In this document: piece after piece, positions 17,722 through 26,205 of the stretch
Numbering within the stretch: the first letter of the stretch is position 1
Layout of the letters: each line of letters starts with the position of its first letter
Program-made: the position numbers and the translations under genes
Virus record (IMG/VR): IMGVR_UViG_3300003277_000033
Location: 1 to 29,972 of that record
Length of the DNA: 29,972 bases
Source of the DNA: a virus
Taxonomy: Duplodnaviria > Caudoviricetes
Direction: 5' to 3' (one strand)
The notes under the pieces: model-generated
What the model saw: only the letters and a program-made list of their open reading frames with translations
What the model was told of the DNA's origin: nothing
The model's database searches: none

Positions 17722-20700
17722 ATGTTTGAATATCTACTCCCTGATGGGACCGCGTTGCCAGAGAACGAAGTAATAAAACTGGCTAAAGATTCTTTTACTG
17801 ATATTAATACTTATATTAAGAAAAATAAACTTACTTTAAGACCTAAGCAAAAGAAAGTCGAGGCTAAAAAAGAAGTTGTAAAACCAGTAGTTGTTGAAAA
17901 GCCAGTTGCCGCTGAAAAGCCAATAGTTGAAAAAGTTAAACCTGCTCCTATTGAAAAATTTAATGCAAAGCAATTTGCAAAAGATTTAGGGGCTTCTAAA
18001 GGTGAAGGATTTTATACTAAAGGAGAAAGGAATATTGAAAAAAGCGGTATAAAAATAAAACAATTAGAAGATAAAACAGTACAAGATGTATTTGATAATT
18101 TTAGCGATTTATCATATACTAATTTATCTCCAGAAGAAAAAAATACTATAGACGACAGGTCTGTTGAATTATTATCTAAAAAATATAAAGTAGGCGAAGA
18201 TTATAGTTTATCTAGTAATGACATAGAATTAAAATCAAAGGAATTATTAGCTTTAGCATCGAAAAAAAAGAAAGCAATTGAAGGGGAAACTTATGGCGAA
18301 AGGATATTAGATGCTACGGCGGCTGGGCTTAATTATGCCGGCGAAATGTTTGCTTCAATGCCTGAAACTATATATCGCGTTTTTGCATTGCCCCAAAATG
18401 CTATAAGCATGATGACCGGAAATAAAGAGCTAGAAGCAAGTCCTGAAAAACTAAAAGCCGATACAGGTATTACTAATCCAATAATGGATTATTTTATTGA
18501 TGAAAGAAATAGACTCGGTAAAAAGAATGAAATATATGACAATGCCAATTACGATTCTACTAGCATTGCCACAAATCTACAAGATGGAAATTATACTGAC
18601 GCTTTTAAGTTACTAGGCTCAGGCTTAGCTGAGAGCGCTCCTATTAGCGTTGGGCTTATGATGGGTGGGGCGGAAATGGGTATTGCCAAAGCAGCAGCAT
18701 CTAGCACAGCGTTATTCGCAGGTCCTAATGTAAGAGAACAAAAAGAAAAAAAATTAGACGACTCCGAATTAAGTACAGTATTAAAAGGATTTGGTATTGC
18801 TGGAGCAGAAGGCGTTTTTAGTGCCATAGGCGAAGGAAGTCTTGGTAAAGTATATAAAGATATAATTAAAAGAGAAGGAGCCGACGTAGGATCAAAAATA
18901 TTCAAGGACGGTCTTGTTGTTGCTTATCAAACAGCTTTAAAAAAATACGGCGCTCCTGCCGCAATGCTTGGAGAAGGATTAGAGGAAGTGGCTACTACTG
19001 TAACCCAAAACTTAATTAATGAAAAGCCAGCTTTTGAAGGGGCAATGGATTCCTTTATTGCAGGCGTTGGAGGCGGCGCTGTTTGGGGTGCTCCTGTTAA
19101 TATAGCCAAAGCTACACAAGGTTTTAAAGACGGTGTTACTGTTCATCAAATAAATAAAACTTTAAAAGATCAACCAGTTAAAACAATAAAAGATGTATTT
19201 AATCCGAATACGCCTATTACAAATGCTCAAGTAAATATATCATTAATACCTAATTCATATAAAATACTAAATAGTCAATTAGATATTGCCCAAAATACTG
19301 ATGAGATTACCGGAGAAGAAGCCGATGCCATAAGAAAAGAGTTTGCCGGAACGTATTACGCTGCAAATAAATTAAAAGAATTAAAACTAAACGAAGATAA
19401 TAATACTAAAATTGCTAATTTATTAAAAGAAAGAGGAGCACTTAAAGCAAAAGTAGACGCTGTTAATGATCCAACCCTAACTACAATACAATCTAATAGA
19501 ATAAAAGAACTAAACGTAGAAATAGAAGGTGTTATTAAGGATAATGCAAAGACTGAAATTGAGAAAGGTATTGCTCTATCTGAAAAAAGTATATTAGAAA
19601 CTGGTGAAAAAGTTTATGAAAAACCATTAGGAACAGGTAAAAGTTTTGAAGTATTTGACACGGCAGAAGAAGCTCAAGGCGCTTATGATAAATGGGCAGA
19701 AGAAAACGGTAAAAAATCTGAAGATATAAGAGAATCTGATGGATTCAAATTGCCAAATGGGCAAATGTTAATAAATAAAGAAAGAGCTATTGAAGTAACT
19801 GCTTTAAATGTTGCCCCTCACGAATTGCTGCATAATATCATTGATAACGAATTTACTGAACCGTCTAAAGCTGAGGAGTTAAAAAACAAATTCTTAGGCA
19901 CATTAAGTAAAGCGGAAAGAGAAAAATTAGATATAAGGATATTAGCAGAAGACAGCAAAGGAAATAGACTTTATGATGATGAGTATTTAAAAAATTCACC
20001 AGGTGAATATGCCACTCAATTTTTTGAGTTAGTAAGAAATGGCGATATTAAATGGAGTGATAATGTAAAAGAATCTTTAATAAGAATGTGGAAAGGCATA
20101 TTTAAACCTATATTTGAAAAGTACGGTTATAAAAATATTGAATTTACAGATGGTAGAGATATTTATAATTTTATTAAAGATTATTCAAAATCAATAGAAA
20201 AAGGAACTTTATCCACAAGAGCAAAGAAACTTTTAAAACAAGGAGAAGGAGTTTCTGGTGTAACATCTTTTTCAAAATCAGCAGATTTAAAAGTTGAATT
20301 AGAAAAGTTATTAGGAAAAGAAGATGACTTTGATGATCCGCAAGAATTCGATGATTTAGTTGCCAACTTAGAATTTAAAATAAAGTCAGCAATTAGAGCG
20401 GAAGAAAAAGCTCCCGTTACAGAAGCAAAAACTGAAAAACCTAAAACAATAGTCACTGAAGAAGAGATTGTTAAAGAAATTATTAAAAACGAAAAGGGAA
20501 CTATATCTTCTGACAAAGTTCAACAAATATACAGCGCTAAAGGAAAAGAAGGAGCAGATGAAATAATAAAATTGTTTAAGCCTATAACCGCAAAAATAGT
20601 AGATAAACGTAGAGATGCGCCTGGATTTGACAAAGAATTACTCACCGATGAAATAGAAAGCGGGAAAGGTGGCATATTAGATTTAATAATGAAATATGAT

Positions 20701-23700
20701 CCTAATAGTGGAGTTCCATTAGCGGCTTATATTAATAAATATTTGCCAGTTAGAGCAATTACATCGTCTAGAAGGGTATTAGAATCCAATTTTACTAGTG
20801 ATGTTGAAGCAGAAGTTAATGTAAGAGCTACAGAAACTGCTGATCAAGGAATGACAGTTAATGCTCCTGAAAAACCTAAATATAAAAATGCTTTAGAGTC
20901 AAATATTCTTGAACCTAAAGTTTTAGAAAATGTTACTAATAAAATTATAAGCACTGTTCGATTATTAAAAAGCCGCATAGATGCTCCTGTTACATTAAAT
21001 AGAACTGTAACTCCGCTTATTGCAGAGATACGTGACGAAATTGGAAAACAGTTGGACATTGATATAAAAACAATGTTAGGTGGCAAGAAAGACGGTGCGC
21101 TTAGAAAAGAACTTTTAAAAGCTAAGCGTTATATTCTAGAGAATATGACTACTACTTGGTTAATGGGTAAAGATGGACAAGGTGGTATACCGCAAGCAAT
21201 ACAAAAACGTATTGACGGACAGTGGGTTAGTTTTCCTAATTGGGCAGGACAAAAAATAGATCGTGAAGCAATGTCTACTGATTTAGCAGGAAGAACTTCT
21301 GGTGCCGAATTAGTTAGAAGATTGCCTAATGTATTCAATAACGTTTCTAATGAAGAATTTTTAGCGCAAATAATTGGACCAGATGGTAATCCTATTAGGG
21401 GTAGAAAAGAATCTATTTCTAAGGCTATGGCTGAAGAAGTAGCCTTTGACATTACGAAACGTGACTTGGAAGAAGAAGGTCCAATATATGACGCTTTAAA
21501 AGCTAATCAAGAGCGTTTAGGTGTTGAGATTCTAGAAAATTTACCAGTTGTATTTGCTAAACAAGCGGATAGAGGTAATATAAAGCTCTCTAAAAGCGTA
21601 GTAAAAGGTATTAATATTTCAACAACTAAACTAGCTGAAGATATATTTAATGCTCCAGATTTGCAGTCAGAAATAAAAGTTATTAATAATTGGATAGCTA
21701 GCGACGGAAGGTCAATAAGAACATTGGCTTATACTTTATTTGGAAAAGACGATGGGCGAGCTACTAATTTAGGGTTATTTAAACAAATCATTGCTCCAAT
21801 AATAAAAGTTAATTCTAAATTTGAAGGTCTATTAACAAAAGATGCTTACAATATTAAACAAGGAGCAAGAGGTTATTCGATATATTTAGGGGAAGATAAA
21901 ATACCATTATGGAAAGATACTGAATCTATAAAAAAGGATTGGAAAAATAATATTGGTGTAATAAATTCAGAAGCGATAGAGGCTACAAATAGATTAGTTG
22001 ATATAGTAGACTCTTTTAAAAAGGGTAAAAAGACAGAGGACGATTTAAGGTCTTATTTTGCTGTATTGAAATTTGATCAAAGAGGATTGGCTCGTAAAGT
22101 ATCAAAAGCCGGATTAGGTGTATTAGGGCTAAAAGCAAACCAAAAACCATATTTGGAACATAATGCTCCAAACTATGATATTATGGAGAAATTTGTTGAT
22201 TACTTTAATAAAAAAATTACTGAAAAACAATTAAGAAAATTTGTTGAAAATTCAAAAGTAAATTTAGTACCTGTTGAACTAAATAATTTTTTACCTGCGT
22301 ATAAAGAAGGCATGAATAGAATGCATGCTCCAAAGGTTGTTTTATATCTTCAGGGATTAATAGATAAAGGCCATACTATATTAAACTTAGAAAACGAGTA
22401 TGGATCAAAAAGAAAATTTAATGCTTTAGTAAATTTAGCAAAATCAAATGTAAACTCAGACGCTAATATAAATAATGCTAATAATATAAATGCAGTTGCT
22501 AATTCTCCAACTTTTTCAAAAACACCTAAAGGAATATCTGTTTTTGATTTTGATGATACTGTAGGATTAACAAAGGGTAGTGTGCTATACACAATGCCTG
22601 GTGATCTAATGGTTTACCATGGTGCACCAAAAGGTAAAGACGTAACTAAGATTAGCGATAAAGGGGTTAAGTTCTTTGCTACTGATAAGCGTGAAGCTGA
22701 TGAGTATGCTCGTATGAACTCAGGTGTTACTCAAGAGTTTTTAATAAATGAGTCTGACTTAGTAAATGAAGATGCTATTATTGAAAAAATTAATGAACTA
22801 GGATTAAAGCCAAAGAATAAAGAATTTGAGGCAGAAGATGCTTCTTTCTATGAATTAATAGATACTAGATTTGAAGAGTCGCTAAGTAAAGCGGATATAA
22901 CAAAACTATTTAACGCTCTCAAGAAAGACGGAATAAAAGCAATAAGTTATAGTGATGGAGCACAGGTAAGTGGCAGATCTACAACCAGTATTGCTGTAAT
23001 TGATCCGTCTATAATAGCTACTCCTAAAAAACTTAATGCAGAAGAGTTTGCTAAAAATGGATCAAAATTATTAGAGGATGGAGCTGTCTTTGATTTCTCT
23101 GAATTTAGTAAAGTTGTTGATGGCAAGCCAGGACCAATGGTTCAGAAAATGAAAAAGATGATTGACAAGTTTGGACCTAAAAACTTCTTTATTCTTACGG
23201 CTAGACCGGCAGATGCAGCGGGACCAATACATGAGTTCTTGAAGTCAATAGATATCAATATACCATTAGAAAATATAACAGGATTAGGCAACAGTACAGC
23301 TCAAGCAAAGGCTGATTGGATGGTGGGTAAAGCTGCAGAAGGATATAATGATTTTTATTTTGCAGATGATGCGCCGCAAAATGTTGAAGCTGTTAAGAAA
23401 GCATTAGAAGTTCCCGGTATAACTTCAAAAGTACAACAAGCTAAACTTAAATTTTCATTAACAACTAAACAAGTTCTTAAATGGGAACTTGATGAAGACG
23501 GCCACAATGCTTTATTTACTGTTGGAGGAAGAAGATATTATATATCGCTTATAGACACAGGGGCGGTGTCTTACGACGATAAAACCTTAAGTACTCTATA
23601 TGAAATAGCAGAAAAAAACGATTTAGATACAGACGAAATATTGGTCGCTAAAGACGGATCAAGCTTAAATTTAGAATTCTTAGATAGGAATAAAGGCCAA

Positions 23701-26205
23701 GGCATAACCGATAAAGGTAACGCGTTCAAAGTAATTAGTATAGTCGCGAACGGCATGATGGATCGTATTAAAGACAAAGGCATAGAAACCTTAGTTTTTA
23801 CAGCAAAAGAGCCAAGCCGCATAAAACTTTACAACGCTTTGTCTACCTCGTTTTCTGCTAAATTAGGATGGGACGCTTACTTTAAAGACGGGGTTTATGT
23901 AATTACAAAAAATAAAGATGGCATAGGCGCCGATACCGGTATTGGTAGTTTGAAAGAAGTAAGAGGTGTTTTGAATGTTGTAGATATTAAATCACCAATA
24001 AACCAAGCAAAAATTAAATTTAGTAAAACTTTAAATTCTAGATTTAATGATATACTACAAGAGAATGTAGGATTAGATCCTAATGAAAATTTCTCTGATA
24101 TATTAGCTAAAAGAAAAGGTACTGCTATTGGTAAATATAGATTTTTTGTTCCTCCATCCGCAGCCGACTTTGAATTACTTTTGTATGACTTCTTAGGAAG
24201 AGGAAAGGTTGGCGAAAGACAGTACAAGTTTTTTACTAAAGCATTATTAGAACCGTACTCAAATGGTATTGCGCTAATAGATGCAGCTAAGCAGTCAATT
24301 AAGAATGATTATACGGCTTTAAAAAAAGCTTTTCCAGATGTAAATAAAAATTTAGGCAAACTAACGCCTGATGGTAACTTTACTTATGACCAAGCTATAA
24401 GGGTTTCTATGTGGAACTCTATGGGAGCCGAAATACCTGGACTAGATCAAACTGACATTACCGCAATGGTTAATTTTGTAAATAACGATGCATCCTTATC
24501 CGCTTACAAAGCCGGGTTAATAGCTACCGGCCGTCAAGGCACTGGATGGATAGAACCTACAGAATACTGGGATGCTGAAACTATAATTTCTGATTTACAT
24601 AACATAACAGAAAAATTAGGTAGAAAAAAATACTTAGCTGAATTTATAGATAATTCAAAAGAAATATTTACGCCTGAGAATCTAAATAGAATTGAAGTAG
24701 TATATGGATCTAACTTTAGAGAAGCTTTGGAAGATTCTATTTATAGCATGTCTAATGGAACAAATAGGGAAGGTGGTCCCGGTAGAATAAACGCCGCATG
24801 GTTAAATTGGATTAATAATTCTACAGGAGCTATAATGTTTTGGAATACTAGATCAGCTGTACTGCAAACCGTTGGGGCTATTAACTATTTAAACTGGAGG
24901 GATAATAATCCTTTAAATGCAGCTAAAGCATTTGCAAACCAACCACAATACTGGAAAGACTTTTCTTATATCTGGAATTCAGATAAAATGAAGGAAAGAA
25001 GATCTGGCTTGAAAGAAGACGTTAGTTCCGCCGAAATAGCTAACGCCGCCGCAGGTAGTAAAAATAAAGCTAATGCTGTAATATCTTATTTATTGAAAAA
25101 AGGATTTTTACCAACACAAATTGGTGACAGTTTTGCTATTGCCTCAGGCGGAGCTGCATTTTATAGAAACCGTATTGATTATAATTTAAAGCAAGGAATG
25201 TCTGAAGCAGAAGCTGAGTCTAATGCTTGGAAAGAATTTTTAAAAGTAACAGATCAAACGCAACAATCTGGAGACCCAAGAGACGTGTCGCAACAACAAA
25301 GAAGCGCAGCAGGTAGATTAGTATTAGCATTTCAGAATACATCAATGCAGCAAGCTAGACTTGTTAAGAAAGCAGGGTTAGATCTTATAAATAATAGAGG
25401 CGATGCAAAAACGAATATATCTAAGATCGTATATTATACAGCGGTTCAAAACATTATTTTTGGAAGTTTGCAAAGTGCTTTATTTGCTACAATTTTTAGC
25501 AGTGACAGTGACGAAGAGAAAGAAAAAAAGAAACAAACCGTCGAAGATAAATGGCTTGACATTGGTAATAACATTGTTGATACTATACTGCGTGGTTCTG
25601 GCATGGCTGGTGCTATTGTAGCGACTCTTAAGAATACTTATTTAAAATATAATGAGGAACATGAAAAAGGTTTTAAAGGCGACTATGCTAAAGTAATAAC
25701 TGAAGCCGCTAATATTGCGCCGCCATTAGGATCTAAGTTTACTAAAATGATGGGAGCAATGAAAACTGGAGATATTGAAAAAGATGTTATTGCTAAAAGG
25801 GGTTGGGGCATTACACAAGGAGGTAGGTTGGATTTAAGTCCGTCTTATTCTGTATTAGGACAGGGGGTTGAGGCCGTTACTAACTTGCCTATGAACAGGT
25901 TTGTTACAAAGGTTGGCAACCTGAGTGAAGCAATGGATAGTAGAAACAAATCCTGGCAACGTATTGCATTAGCAATCGGATACAGCCCCTATATTGTTGG
26001 AGCAAAGAATGAAGAAAGCGATATTATAAAAGCAGAGGCAAAAATTCAAAGGAAGATTGAAGGTAAAGAAAAAGCAATAGAAACTAGAAGGAAAAACAAA
26101 GAAGAGCTAAGGAATATGCCTGCTAGCGAAAGACGCGCTTTAAGAGAAAAGAAACGTGAAGAAAAAAGAAAACTTAGAGAAAGAAAAAGGAACATGTATA
26201 AATAG
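17722..26205 (+). CDS. Giant polyvalent ejection/internal virion protein (2827 aa): zincin, sigma-region-2-like, HAD phosphatase with nested ART-like domain, GNAT-like, helical C-terminus
   Basis: HELLH at 19819-19833; KYDPNSGVPLAAYINKY near 20692-20742; HAD motifs DFDDT (22546), ILTAR (23191), K (23308), FADDA (23359); ART-like VYHG..FFAT..A..YA..DGI..AVIDP (22606-23016). It is the last gene of the virion operon. Confidence 0.8.
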   Translation: MFEYLLPDGTALPENEVIKLAKDSFTDINTYIKKNKLTLRPKQKKVEAKKEVVKPVVVEKPVAAEKPIVEKVKPAPIEKFNAKQFAKDLGASKGEGFYTKGERNIEKSGIKIKQLEDKTVQDVFDNFSDLSYTNLSPEEKNTIDDRSVELLSKKYKVGEDYSLSSNDIELKSKELLALASKKKKAIEGETYGERILDATAAGLNYAGEMFASMPETIYRVFALPQNAISMMTGNKELEASPEKLKADTGITNPIMDYFIDERNRLGKKNEIYDNANYDSTSIATNLQDGNYTDAFKLLGSGLAESAPISVGLMMGGAEMGIAKAAASSTALFAGPNVREQKEKKLDDSELSTVLKGFGIAGAEGVFSAIGEGSLGKVYKDIIKREGADVGSKIFKDGLVVAYQTALKKYGAPAAMLGEGLEEVATTVTQNLINEKPAFEGAMDSFIAGVGGGAVWGAPVNIAKATQGFKDGVTVHQINKTLKDQPVKTIKDVFNPNTPITNAQVNISLIPNSYKILNSQLDIAQNTDEITGEEADAIRKEFAGTYYAANKLKELKLNEDNNTKIANLLKERGALKAKVDAVNDPTLTTIQSNRIKELNVEIEGVIKDNAKTEIEKGIALSEKSILETGEKVYEKPLGTGKSFEVFDTAEEAQGAYDKWAEENGKKSEDIRESDGFKLPNGQMLINKERAIEVTALNVAPHELLHNIIDNEFTEPSKAEELKNKFLGTLSKAEREKLDIRILAEDSKGNRLYDDEYLKNSPGEYATQFFELVRNGDIKWSDNVKESLIRMWKGIFKPIFEKYGYKNIEFTDGRDIYNFIKDYSKSIEKGTLSTRAKKLLKQGEGVSGVTSFSKSADLKVELEKLLGKEDDFDDPQEFDDLVANLEFKIKSAIRAEEKAPVTEAKTEKPKTIVTEEEIVKEIIKNEKGTISSDKVQQIYSAKGKEGADEIIKLFKPITAKIVDKRRDAPGFDKELLTDEIESGKGGILDLIMKYDPNSGVPLAAYINKYLPVRAITSSRRVLESNFTSDVEAEVNVRATETADQGMTVNAPEKPKYKNALESNILEPKVLENVTNKIISTVRLLKSRIDAPVTLNRTVTPLIAEIRDEIGKQLDIDIKTMLGGKKDGALRKELLKAKRYILENMTTTWLMGKDGQGGIPQAIQKRIDGQWVSFPNWAGQKIDREAMSTDLAGRTSGAELVRRLPNVFNNVSNEEFLAQIIGPDGNPIRGRKESISKAMAEEVAFDITKRDLEEEGPIYDALKANQERLGVEILENLPVVFAKQADRGNIKLSKSVVKGINISTTKLAEDIFNAPDLQSEIKVINNWIASDGRSIRTLAYTLFGKDDGRATNLGLFKQIIAPIIKVNSKFEGLLTKDAYNIKQGARGYSIYLGEDKIPLWKDTESIKKDWKNNIGVINSEAIEATNRLVDIVDSFKKGKKTEDDLRSYFAVLKFDQRGLARKVSKAGLGVLGLKANQKPYLEHNAPNYDIMEKFVDYFNKKITEKQLRKFVENSKVNLVPVELNNFLPAYKEGMNRMHAPKVVLYLQGLIDKGHTILNLENEYGSKRKFNALVNLAKSNVNSDANINNANNINAVANSPTFSKTPKGISVFDFDDTVGLTKGSVLYTMPGDLMVYHGAPKGKDVTKISDKGVKFFATDKREADEYARMNSGVTQEFLINESDLVNEDAIIEKINELGLKPKNKEFEAEDASFYELIDTRFEESLSKADITKLFNALKKDGIKAISYSDGAQVSGRSTTSIAVIDPSIIATPKKLNAEEFAKNGSKLLEDGAVFDFSEFSKVVDGKPGPMVQKMKKMIDKFGPKNFFILTARPADAAGPIHEFLKSIDINIPLENITGLGNSTAQAKADWMVGKAAEGYNDFYFADDAPQNVEAVKKALEVPGITSKVQQAKLKFSLTTKQVLKWELDEDGHNALFTVGGRRYYISLIDTGAVSYDDKTLSTLYEIAEKNDLDTDEILVAKDGSSLNLEFLDRNKGQGITDKGNAFKVISIVANGMMDRIKDKGIETLVFTAKEPSRIKLYNALSTSFSAKLGWDAYFKDGVYVITKNKDGIGADTGIGSLKEVRGVLNVVDIKSPINQAKIKFSKTLNSRFNDILQENVGLDPNENFSDILAKRKGTAIGKYRFFVPPSAADFELLLYDFLGRGKVGERQYKFFTKALLEPYSNGIALIDAAKQSIKNDYTALKKAFPDVNKNLGKLTPDGNFTYDQAIRVSMWNSMGAEIPGLDQTDITAMVNFVNNDASLSAYKAGLIATGRQGTGWIEPTEYWDAETIISDLHNITEKLGRKKYLAEFIDNSKEIFTPENLNRIEVVYGSNFREALEDSIYSMSNGTNREGGPGRINAAWLNWINNSTGAIMFWNTRSAVLQTVGAINYLNWRDNNPLNAAKAFANQPQYWKDFSYIWNSDKMKERRSGLKEDVSSAEIANAAAGSKNKANAVISYLLKKGFLPTQIGDSFAIASGGAAFYRNRIDYNLKQGMSEAEAESNAWKEFLKVTDQTQQSGDPRDVSQQQRSAAGRLVLAFQNTSMQQARLVKKAGLDLINNRGDAKTNISKIVYYTAVQNIIFGSLQSALFATIFSSDSDEEKEKKKQTVEDKWLDIGNNIVDTILRGSGMAGAIVATLKNTYLKYNEEHEKGFKGDYAKVITEAANIAPPLGSKFTKMMGAMKTGDIEKDVIAKRGWGITQGGRLDLSPSYSVLGQGVEAVTNLPMNRFVTKVGNLSEAMDSRNKSWQRIALAIGYSPYIVGAKNEESDIIKAEAKIQRKIEGKEKAIETRRKNKEELRNMPASERRALREKKREEKRKLRERKRNMYK

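Follow-up and report, generated by a model that had tools for sequence, protein, structure and literature searches.

Genetic organisation of the locus

The DNA analysed here, referred to as the window, was a stretch of 29,972 nucleotides from the IMG/VR record IMGVR_UViG_3300003277_000033 (Duplodnaviria; Caudoviricetes). It encoded a podophage virion operon of flavobacterial type, and the sequencing runs that represented it best were freshwater metagenomes. The closest cultured matches of the portal protein were found in Maribacter phage Panino (44%) and Flavobacterium Elemovirus (42%); 68 of the 87 records matched by the portal were Flavobacterium phages and 15 were Cellulophaga phages. The last gene of the operon encoded a giant protein whose neighbours, as identified by profile matches, were terminase, portal, virion proteins and pieces of a crAss-type muzzle. 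Ribonucleotide reductase genes on the opposite strand came after the giant ORF. The muzzle (9185 bp–14,735 bp) was split into two ORFs, 9185 bp–12,412 bp and 13,371 bp–14,735 bp, with an unassigned ORF of 312 amino acids between them, and Elemovirus had a single gene of about 1470 amino acids at the matching place. Elemovirus also had a giant gene at the position matching that of the window, where it was annotated as structural. The features of the giant gene were as follows.

17,722–26,205, + strand: giant polyvalent protein of 2827 amino acids without cysteine (ORF; last gene of the virion operon)
19,819–19,833, + strand: HELLH zincin-type motif at amino acid 700, with HExxH nearly invariant in homolog alignment A1; candidate polyprotein-processing protease
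22,510–22,521, + strand: T-F-S-K linker preceding the HAD module (possible processing site)
22,531–22,599, + strand: N-part of the HAD, with beta-1 carrying motif I (D1609-x-D1611-x-T1613) and then the first cap-hairpin strand (alignment, model)
22,603–23,025, + strand: nested ART-PolyVal-like (ADP-ribosyltransferase) domain, net 138 amino acids (Pfam match below cut-off, model, fold matches)
22,618, 22,672, 22,705 and 22,954: predicted NAD site, formed by H1633, F1651, Y1662 and D1745 respectively
Helical insert of the ART: conserved acidic residues E1683, E1711 and D1714, together with F1717
23,029–23,442, + strand: C-part of the HAD, which completes the small cap and carries motif II (T1826, together with R1828), motif III (K1863) and motif IV (D1882-D1883)
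23,449–23,460, + strand: K-F-S-L linker following the HAD module (possible processing site)
23,461–23,940, + strand: DUF6934-like domain after the HAD (Pfam PF22028, E 0.047; Atlas 0.93, the family being on 13% of that cluster)

The name 'GNAT-like' for the domain downstream of the HAD was dropped, as only the weak DUF6934 match was obtained. Of 110 long homologs, 46 had the motif [FYLM]S[KL] shortly before the HAD (0.07 expected per protein) and 84 had a linker motif within 16 amino acids after it (0.05 expected). Given the position of the giant gene in this operon and by comparison with crassvirus cargo proteins (PMC10172136), the giant protein is likely to be packaged and injected with the DNA.

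Neither the giant protein nor any of its pieces had a family in PHROGs. A tblastn search of 50,697 phage records with the module and the C-terminal 754 amino acids returned no match, and profiles of the ART, HAD, kinase and DUF6934-like domains had no match in the part of the Elemovirus giant protein within L232; thus no cultured carrier was found. The region between 20,614 bp and 20,760 bp, around YDPNSG, had no Pfam match and presumably resembles sigma-70 region 2.

An insertion at the hairpin turn of the HAD

The sequence-only reading had placed an ADP-ribosyltransferase-like block between motif I and motifs II–IV of a HAD phosphatase, and all of its coordinates were correct: DFDDT is at amino acid 1609 (22,546 bp), ILTAR at 1824 (23,191 bp), the motif III lysine at 1863 (23,308 bp) and FADDA at 1880 (23,359 bp), with the insert edges LMVYHG at 22,606 bp and SIAVIDPSII at 22,987 bp–23,016 bp. 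Among 27 viral loci, four of which had the insert, the distance from motif I to LTAR was 77–78 amino acids without the insert and 214–216 amino acids with it. As the two distance classes are sharp (77–78 against 216 amino acids), the net insert is 138 amino acids. The insert-less homologs read ...YTMP-DGSKG-KLNAEEF, so that in the window a short turn has given way to the insert, as predicted. Orthologues without precisely this block were present among the homologs. The proposal that the insert occupies the C1 cap position held in that the ART is nested after HAD motif I, but the HAD keeps its own small cap, which the ART does not replace. This cap consists of a hairpin, a helix and strands (DSSP on the model), and the ART is at the tip of the hairpin, between two cap strands.

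An assembly artefact was ruled out, as contigs of run X1, possibly the run of origin, bridged both insert junctions. A contig from an RNA library of another study (X4) crossed the 3′ junction with zero differing letters, and related insert-less alleles in X1, X2 and X3 had joints that skipped from about 22,600 bp to 23,035 bp–23,079 bp. An intron or intein was also rejected because the insert is in frame, lacks intein ends and was unspliced over the 3′ junction in the RNA-library contig, from a library that may contain DNA. The insert ends are G-D-L-M and A-T-P-K, with no N-terminal Cys or Ser, no C-terminal His-Asn and no HINT fold, in a protein free of Cys. No terminal repeats or target-site duplication at the insert ends were present among the repeats listed, and no hidden out-of-frame gene ahead of the ART was found, there being no such ORF of at least 30 amino acids on the + strand between 21,900 bp and 23,600 bp.

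The HAD module

Residues D1609, D1611, T1613, T1826, K1863, D1882 and D1883 were invariant in 67 rows, as were the Phe of motif I and K1870. Motif I read DFDDT in 83 of 84 ART-bearing rows and the HAD motifs were intact whatever the insert. The 320 amino acid module was modelled at a pLDDT of 88 (36-row alignment). VIA alignments spanned model residues 8–316 with Z scores of up to 12.8, which supports the prediction that motif I joins motifs II–IV in one HAD fold. The best VIA match was the T4 Pnkp phosphatase (Z 12.8, rmsd 2.3, 126 aligned, 14% identity), followed by Pnkp1 (12.4), T4 PNK (12.0) and then unrelated HADs from 11.3 to 10.9. A Foldseek search of the PDB with the whole module gave no match at E ≤ 0.001. 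The insert-less homolog P0137 matched phrog_415, 'polynucleotide kinase' (E 1.4e-6). The HAD is therefore predicted to be a Pnkp-like phosphatase. HADs near the ORF start with a similar hairpin-cap pattern and tips of varying length were also seen on other viral contigs (L118, L119, L126, L134, L138 and L140).

The nested ART domain and its predicted active site

Modelled alone, the insert reached a pLDDT of 93 (60 rows) and matched ART-fold structures, in agreement with the proposal of an ART fold and not of an ordinary HAD cap. Its VIA list was almost wholly made up of ART folds and contained a cyanophage A4 pre-ejectosome chain (Z 7.8, 128 aligned), diphtheria toxin (7.2), MbcT (6.8), KptA (6.2, 75 aligned), AcrIF11 (6.1, 118 aligned) and PARPs. 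The top Foldseek ranks were a cyanophage ejection protein, tankyrase, KptA, RES and PARP4. No fold match of the insert in the PDB reached Z 8 (VIA) or E 0.001 (Foldseek), so the case for an ART rests on the agreement of these lists, on BFVD, where 17 matches at E ≤ 0.001 included ART-PolyVal-named proteins, and on the Pfam ART-PolyVal match. This last match bore out the ART-PolyVal identity in part: PF18760 was matched at E 5e-5, but its 24.5 bits were below the Pfam cut-off of 31.2. Among the ART-family rows, 19 of 60 matched PF18760 at E ≤ 0.01. At the sequence level nothing significant came from the PDB, which was searched with the module, a stand-alone homolog and two ART alignments.

The best ART-fold match was PDB 9k3a chain B, residues 1421–1600, which by its residue numbers is probably gp27 of the cyanophage A4 pre-ejectosome. 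As the main text of the corresponding paper contained neither 'ADP-ribos' nor 'NAD', a virion-packaged ART may be unannotated in this structure. Six stand-alone ARTs of 151–172 amino acids (P0273, P0281, P0305, P0331, P0332 and P0339) had short leaders ending in F..NE(S/N), which we take to recall the head-targeting or prohead-protease leaders of large phages.

G1648, A1659, Y1662, G1668, E1683, E1711, D1714, F1717 and D1745 were invariant in 36 non-redundant nested ARTs. The active-site configuration of ART-PolyVal has H on strand 1, Y on strand 2 and a D; the window ART has H1633 and D1745 but F1651 where Y would be expected, in a register taken from spacing. The position of F1651 was aromatic (F or Y) in all 36 of these rows, with Y in 20. 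The four residues of the predicted NAD site were spaced by 18, 11 and 83 amino acids, much as in AcrIF11 (PDB 6KYF), where H7, F26, H37 and D115 are spaced by 19, 11 and 78 (PMC8120803). As the H-F-Y-D spacing is nearly that of AcrIF11, we infer that D1745 is the putative catalytic residue matching D115, in a register taken from spacing and not from a residue-level superposition.

The fold could also belong to a catalytically dead ART that serves as a binding or decoy module. The position of H1633 was His in 25 and Asn in 11 of the 36 nested rows, and Asn in 9 of 91 free rows, a change that would suit a dead domain, as would the Pfam score below cut-off. However, the window copy keeps H1633, Y1662 and D1745, the aspartate was present in 36/36 nested and 81/91 free rows, and AcrIF11 is itself active with H-F-H-D (bioRxiv 10.1101/2024.08.26.609590). 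We therefore consider a dead ART improbable. Much the same holds for an insert that consumes NAD+ as a hydrolase or phosphorylase, or that acts on an immune signal derived from NAD by degrading or binding it, with no macromolecular acceptor in either case. The toxins MbcT, RES and NatT were among the fold matches (Z 5.6–6.8) and the equivalent of the PARP catalytic Glu, aligned by eye, was Ser or Asn in 36/36 nested rows, leaving this position without an acidic residue. These toxins were, however, tied with the transferases diphtheria toxin and AcrIF11, the His-aromatic-Tyr-Asp pattern is that of a transferase-type clade (PMC5512222), and a lytic phage would presumably suffer from a drain on NAD+. 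NAD+ consumption alone is thus a poor candidate for the function of the insert.

The dN/dS of the ART was 0.045–0.073 against four close relatives (L001, L002, L003 and L203; dS above 1 in three of the four), and 0.30 and 0.19 against the more distant L004 and L030, in a set that left out L207 (a duplicate of L002) and L017 and L175 (insert-less loci with spurious 'ART' alignments). Both the ART and the HAD are under purifying selection.

Contents of the hairpin turn in related proteins

The turn was compared in 265 distinct homologous HADs with both parts present, a sample that was enriched for the window-type ART by the queries used. It was empty in 164 and held an ART like that of the window in 84, a P-loop kinase in 10, a helical insert in 4, a permuted DUF6934-like domain in 2 and an ART of a second clade in 1. 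In the two domain-level examples of the kinase cargo that were scanned, AAA_33 and Zeta_toxin were above cut-off. The helical insert was 46 amino acids long and predicted to be helical.

A second census used F-D-F-D-D-T-L-A as its sole anchor, which does not capture the clade of the window itself, and covered 120 of about 710 stretches. The C-part of the HAD was present in 104 of these 120 viral loci. No domain was inserted in 93 of the 104; 6 carried a kinase, 3 the helical insert, 1 a second-clade ART and none a window-clade ART, and 1 was mis-anchored. Of the 80 metagenome loci ranked highest by likeness to the empty HAD, 71 were empty and 6 were truncated, and the ART was present in 3, one of these being identical to the window.

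The second-clade insert, at L038:1570–2130, was a distinct ART-PolyVal clade of about 183 amino acids in the same HAD hairpin. Profile comparison with the window-ART alignment was weak (probability 8.5%), and its assignment as an ART rests on Atlas (0.93, 28/30 hits) and on motifs. Its presence in the hairpin implies an independent ART insertion. The domain nested in P0150 and P0198 was related by circular permutation to the DUF6934-like domain located after the window HAD (23,461 bp–23,940 bp); tandem DUF6934-like copies were seen in P0070 and P0092 and offer a possible route to permutation. P0258 and P0267 had a free ART ahead of a kinase-filled HAD.

Movement of the ART between proteins

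A tree of the HAD C-part was built with FastTree from 260 rows and about 136 columns of a domain that itself recombines; on it the ART state required 35 changes, at least 15 of them forced by starred branches. The nearest row to the window HAD C-part was P0060, which is empty and 94% identical. In the ART tree (129 rows), where the 'free' label is wrong or ambiguous for P0126 and a few other fragments, the nested state required 13 changes, at least 8 of them forced. An AU test on the 36 nested rows and 20 of the 93 others, chosen after the tree was seen and leaving out mislabelled or ambiguous rows, rejected the nested ARTs as one clade (p 6e-56). All nested copies nevertheless fell within one 59-row part of the ART tree, of which they made up 36 rows. 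The hairpin is therefore a favoured home of this sub-clade, and selection for keeping ART and HAD together could be the reason.

The sister of the window ART was the free-standing P0244 (84% identical), in a protein without a HAD match. Clustering at 50% gave 116 ART representatives, many of them fragments: 10 were nested, 2 were nested but incomplete, 3 had the HAD elsewhere, 100 had no HAD match and 1 was unscored. The C-part of the HAD was present in 12 of the 81 representatives of at least 1000 amino acids and absent from 69. The window-type ART was also found in P0275, P0278 and P0282 in a loop of the C-terminal domain, at the equivalent of KQG/MSEAEAE (window 25,162 bp–25,218 bp).

The identities of the two domains were weakly correlated (rho 0.28, 600 non-independent pairs). 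P0018 shared 89% identity with the window over the ART and 57% over the HAD, whereas six rows shared 38–42% over the ART and 79–82% over the HAD. Nucleotide identity to L001 was 80–82% just upstream of the insert, 92–98% from the 5′ edge of the insert to 23,050 bp, and 86–90% and then 70–82% past this point. The dS against L001 was 0.28 for the ART and 1.27 for the HAD C-part. A recombination tract thus covers the insert between the window and L001.

Coupled enzyme or independent cargo

The nesting had been taken as a sign that dephosphorylation and ADP-ribose transfer might be coupled. The comparisons argue against this, as the site is optional and accepts unrelated cargo, and most ART-family proteins lack this HAD. 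No HAD position tracked the presence of the ART; the largest frequency differences (0.33–0.42) were at variable positions of mixed residues. Since the same turn may be empty or hold a kinase, an ART or other domains, a swappable slot is likelier than a part of a coupled enzyme. We put at about 65% the probability that the hairpin turn of the HAD serves an injected polyprotein as a cargo socket, optional and subject to recombination, and that the ART acts independently.

The HAD module between the T-F-S-K and K-F-S-L linkers would form one cargo unit of this polyprotein. Cutting at these K/T-F-S-K/L linkers would free the HAD and ART as one piece of about 313 amino acids, so nesting would deliver the cargo without a new cleavage site. 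The ART would carry out NAD+-dependent mono-ADP-ribosylation by an AcrIF11-type H-F-Y-D site. Its target may be a conserved host protein, modified early in infection in a takeover like that by T4 Alt or in counter-defence; a protein is suggested because the acidic residues of the ART are invariant and the insert is net acidic (20 K+R against 26 D+E). In our judgement, mono-ADP-ribosylation of a host protein at an early stage of infection, without dependence on the phosphatase, is the probable role of the ART. The HAD would separately strip terminal phosphates, most likely from nucleic-acid 3′ ends, and recombination within the conserved flanking HAD sequence is the likely route by which the cassettes spread.

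Functional neutrality of the socket is open to doubt, as its commonest other enzyme cargo, a Pnk-like kinase, is the natural partner of a Pnkp phosphatase. In a coupled end-processing scheme, the Pnkp-type HAD would bind and open broken RNA or DNA ends and the ART, as an alternative to the kinase, would remove or ADP-ribose-cap the terminal phosphate in the manner of Tpt1/KptA. T4 Pnkp and Pnkp1 as the best structural matches of the HAD, the invariant T-x-R of motif II, a kinase cargo of AAA_33/Zeta type at the same site and KptA among the ART matches are all consistent with such a scheme, and HADs with ADP-ribosylating enzymes have been proposed in phage RNA repair neighbourhoods (PMC9503650). 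Against it, the H-H-h triad of Tpt1/KptA (PMC8120803) differs from the window ART, whose second position is aromatic in the register given by spacing, and no Pfam match to the Tpt1 family was obtained. The net acidic insert with its invariant acidic residues, the 69 of 81 long ART-family representatives without the HAD C-part, the lack of any HAD position that tracks the ART, and P0258 and P0267, in which kinase and ART are not alternatives, also argue against coupling. We regard coupled end processing as unlikely; what keeps it alive as a minority view is a Pnkp-like HAD together with a Pnk-like kinase as the other cargo. A broader form of it, to which we give little credence, would make the Pnkp-like phosphatase a chassis that grips broken nucleic-acid ends and whose hairpin carries interchangeable warheads, the kinase for classic end healing and the ART for an undescribed NAD+-dependent capping or healing of phosphate ends, delivered by the virion before phage expression and swapped by recombination as host defences change.

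An independent cargo socket would give polyvalent proteins a route to gain and swap effectors, in which whole enzymes are plugged into one tolerant enzyme loop. The five kinds of cargo and the visible recombination tract illustrate such loop swapping, and natural pairs with and without the insert, such as the window and the empty P0060, bear on the question of coupling. The ART family is widespread in giant phage proteins and its acidic surface motif is conserved, which makes it a candidate enzyme of host takeover or counter-defence in abundant aquatic phages.

Comparison with known systems

Phage polyvalent proteins with ART domains and a zincin motif have been described, and both packaging and the modification of host proteins have been predicted for them (Iyer et al. 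2017, PMC5512222). The window protein resembles them in being a giant protein of a late operon with a zincin HExxH and a mobile H-aromatic-D ART. Unlike the polyvalent proteins of PMC5512222, it has its ART nested inside another enzyme domain, with a PF18760 score below cut-off. In the main text of PMC5512222 a word search found 'phosphatase(s)' and 'inserted' zero times and 'HAD' only as an ordinary word; its supplements may list such architectures. No ART nested in a HAD was found in the literature searched, outside which most subscription papers lay. The ART-in-HAD is a real architecture, undescribed in that literature, and its parts (ART-PolyVal, Pnkp-like HAD and polyvalent proteins) are known.

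T4 Alt is the model for a virion-injected ART (PMC5512222). Unlike the window ART, Alt belongs to the R-S-E clade. AcrIF11 is a small phage ART with a diphtheria-toxin-like fold; the insert resembled it in structure (Z 6.1) and in residue spacing, and had no sequence-level match to any PDB chain.

The 3′-phosphatase domain of T4 Pnkp/PseT (PDB 5uj0, 1ltq), the best structural match to the predicted fold of the window HAD, shares with it the DxDxT, S/T, Lys and Asp motifs (PMC3592404). Unlike T4 Pnkp, the window protein (P0001) had no kinase match, a kinase being present in 10/265 of the homologous HADs. The window HAD also differs in its extra hairpin-helix cap, which takes inserts, and in being embedded in a virion polyprotein.

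In P-type ATPases, a whole nucleotide-binding domain is inserted after motif I of the HAD P-domain. The window HAD likewise has a domain inserted after motif I, and CopA was at the top of its weak Foldseek list (E 0.006). The insert of P-type ATPases is fixed and feeds the catalytic Asp, whereas that of the window HAD is optional, exchangeable and drawn from unrelated folds.
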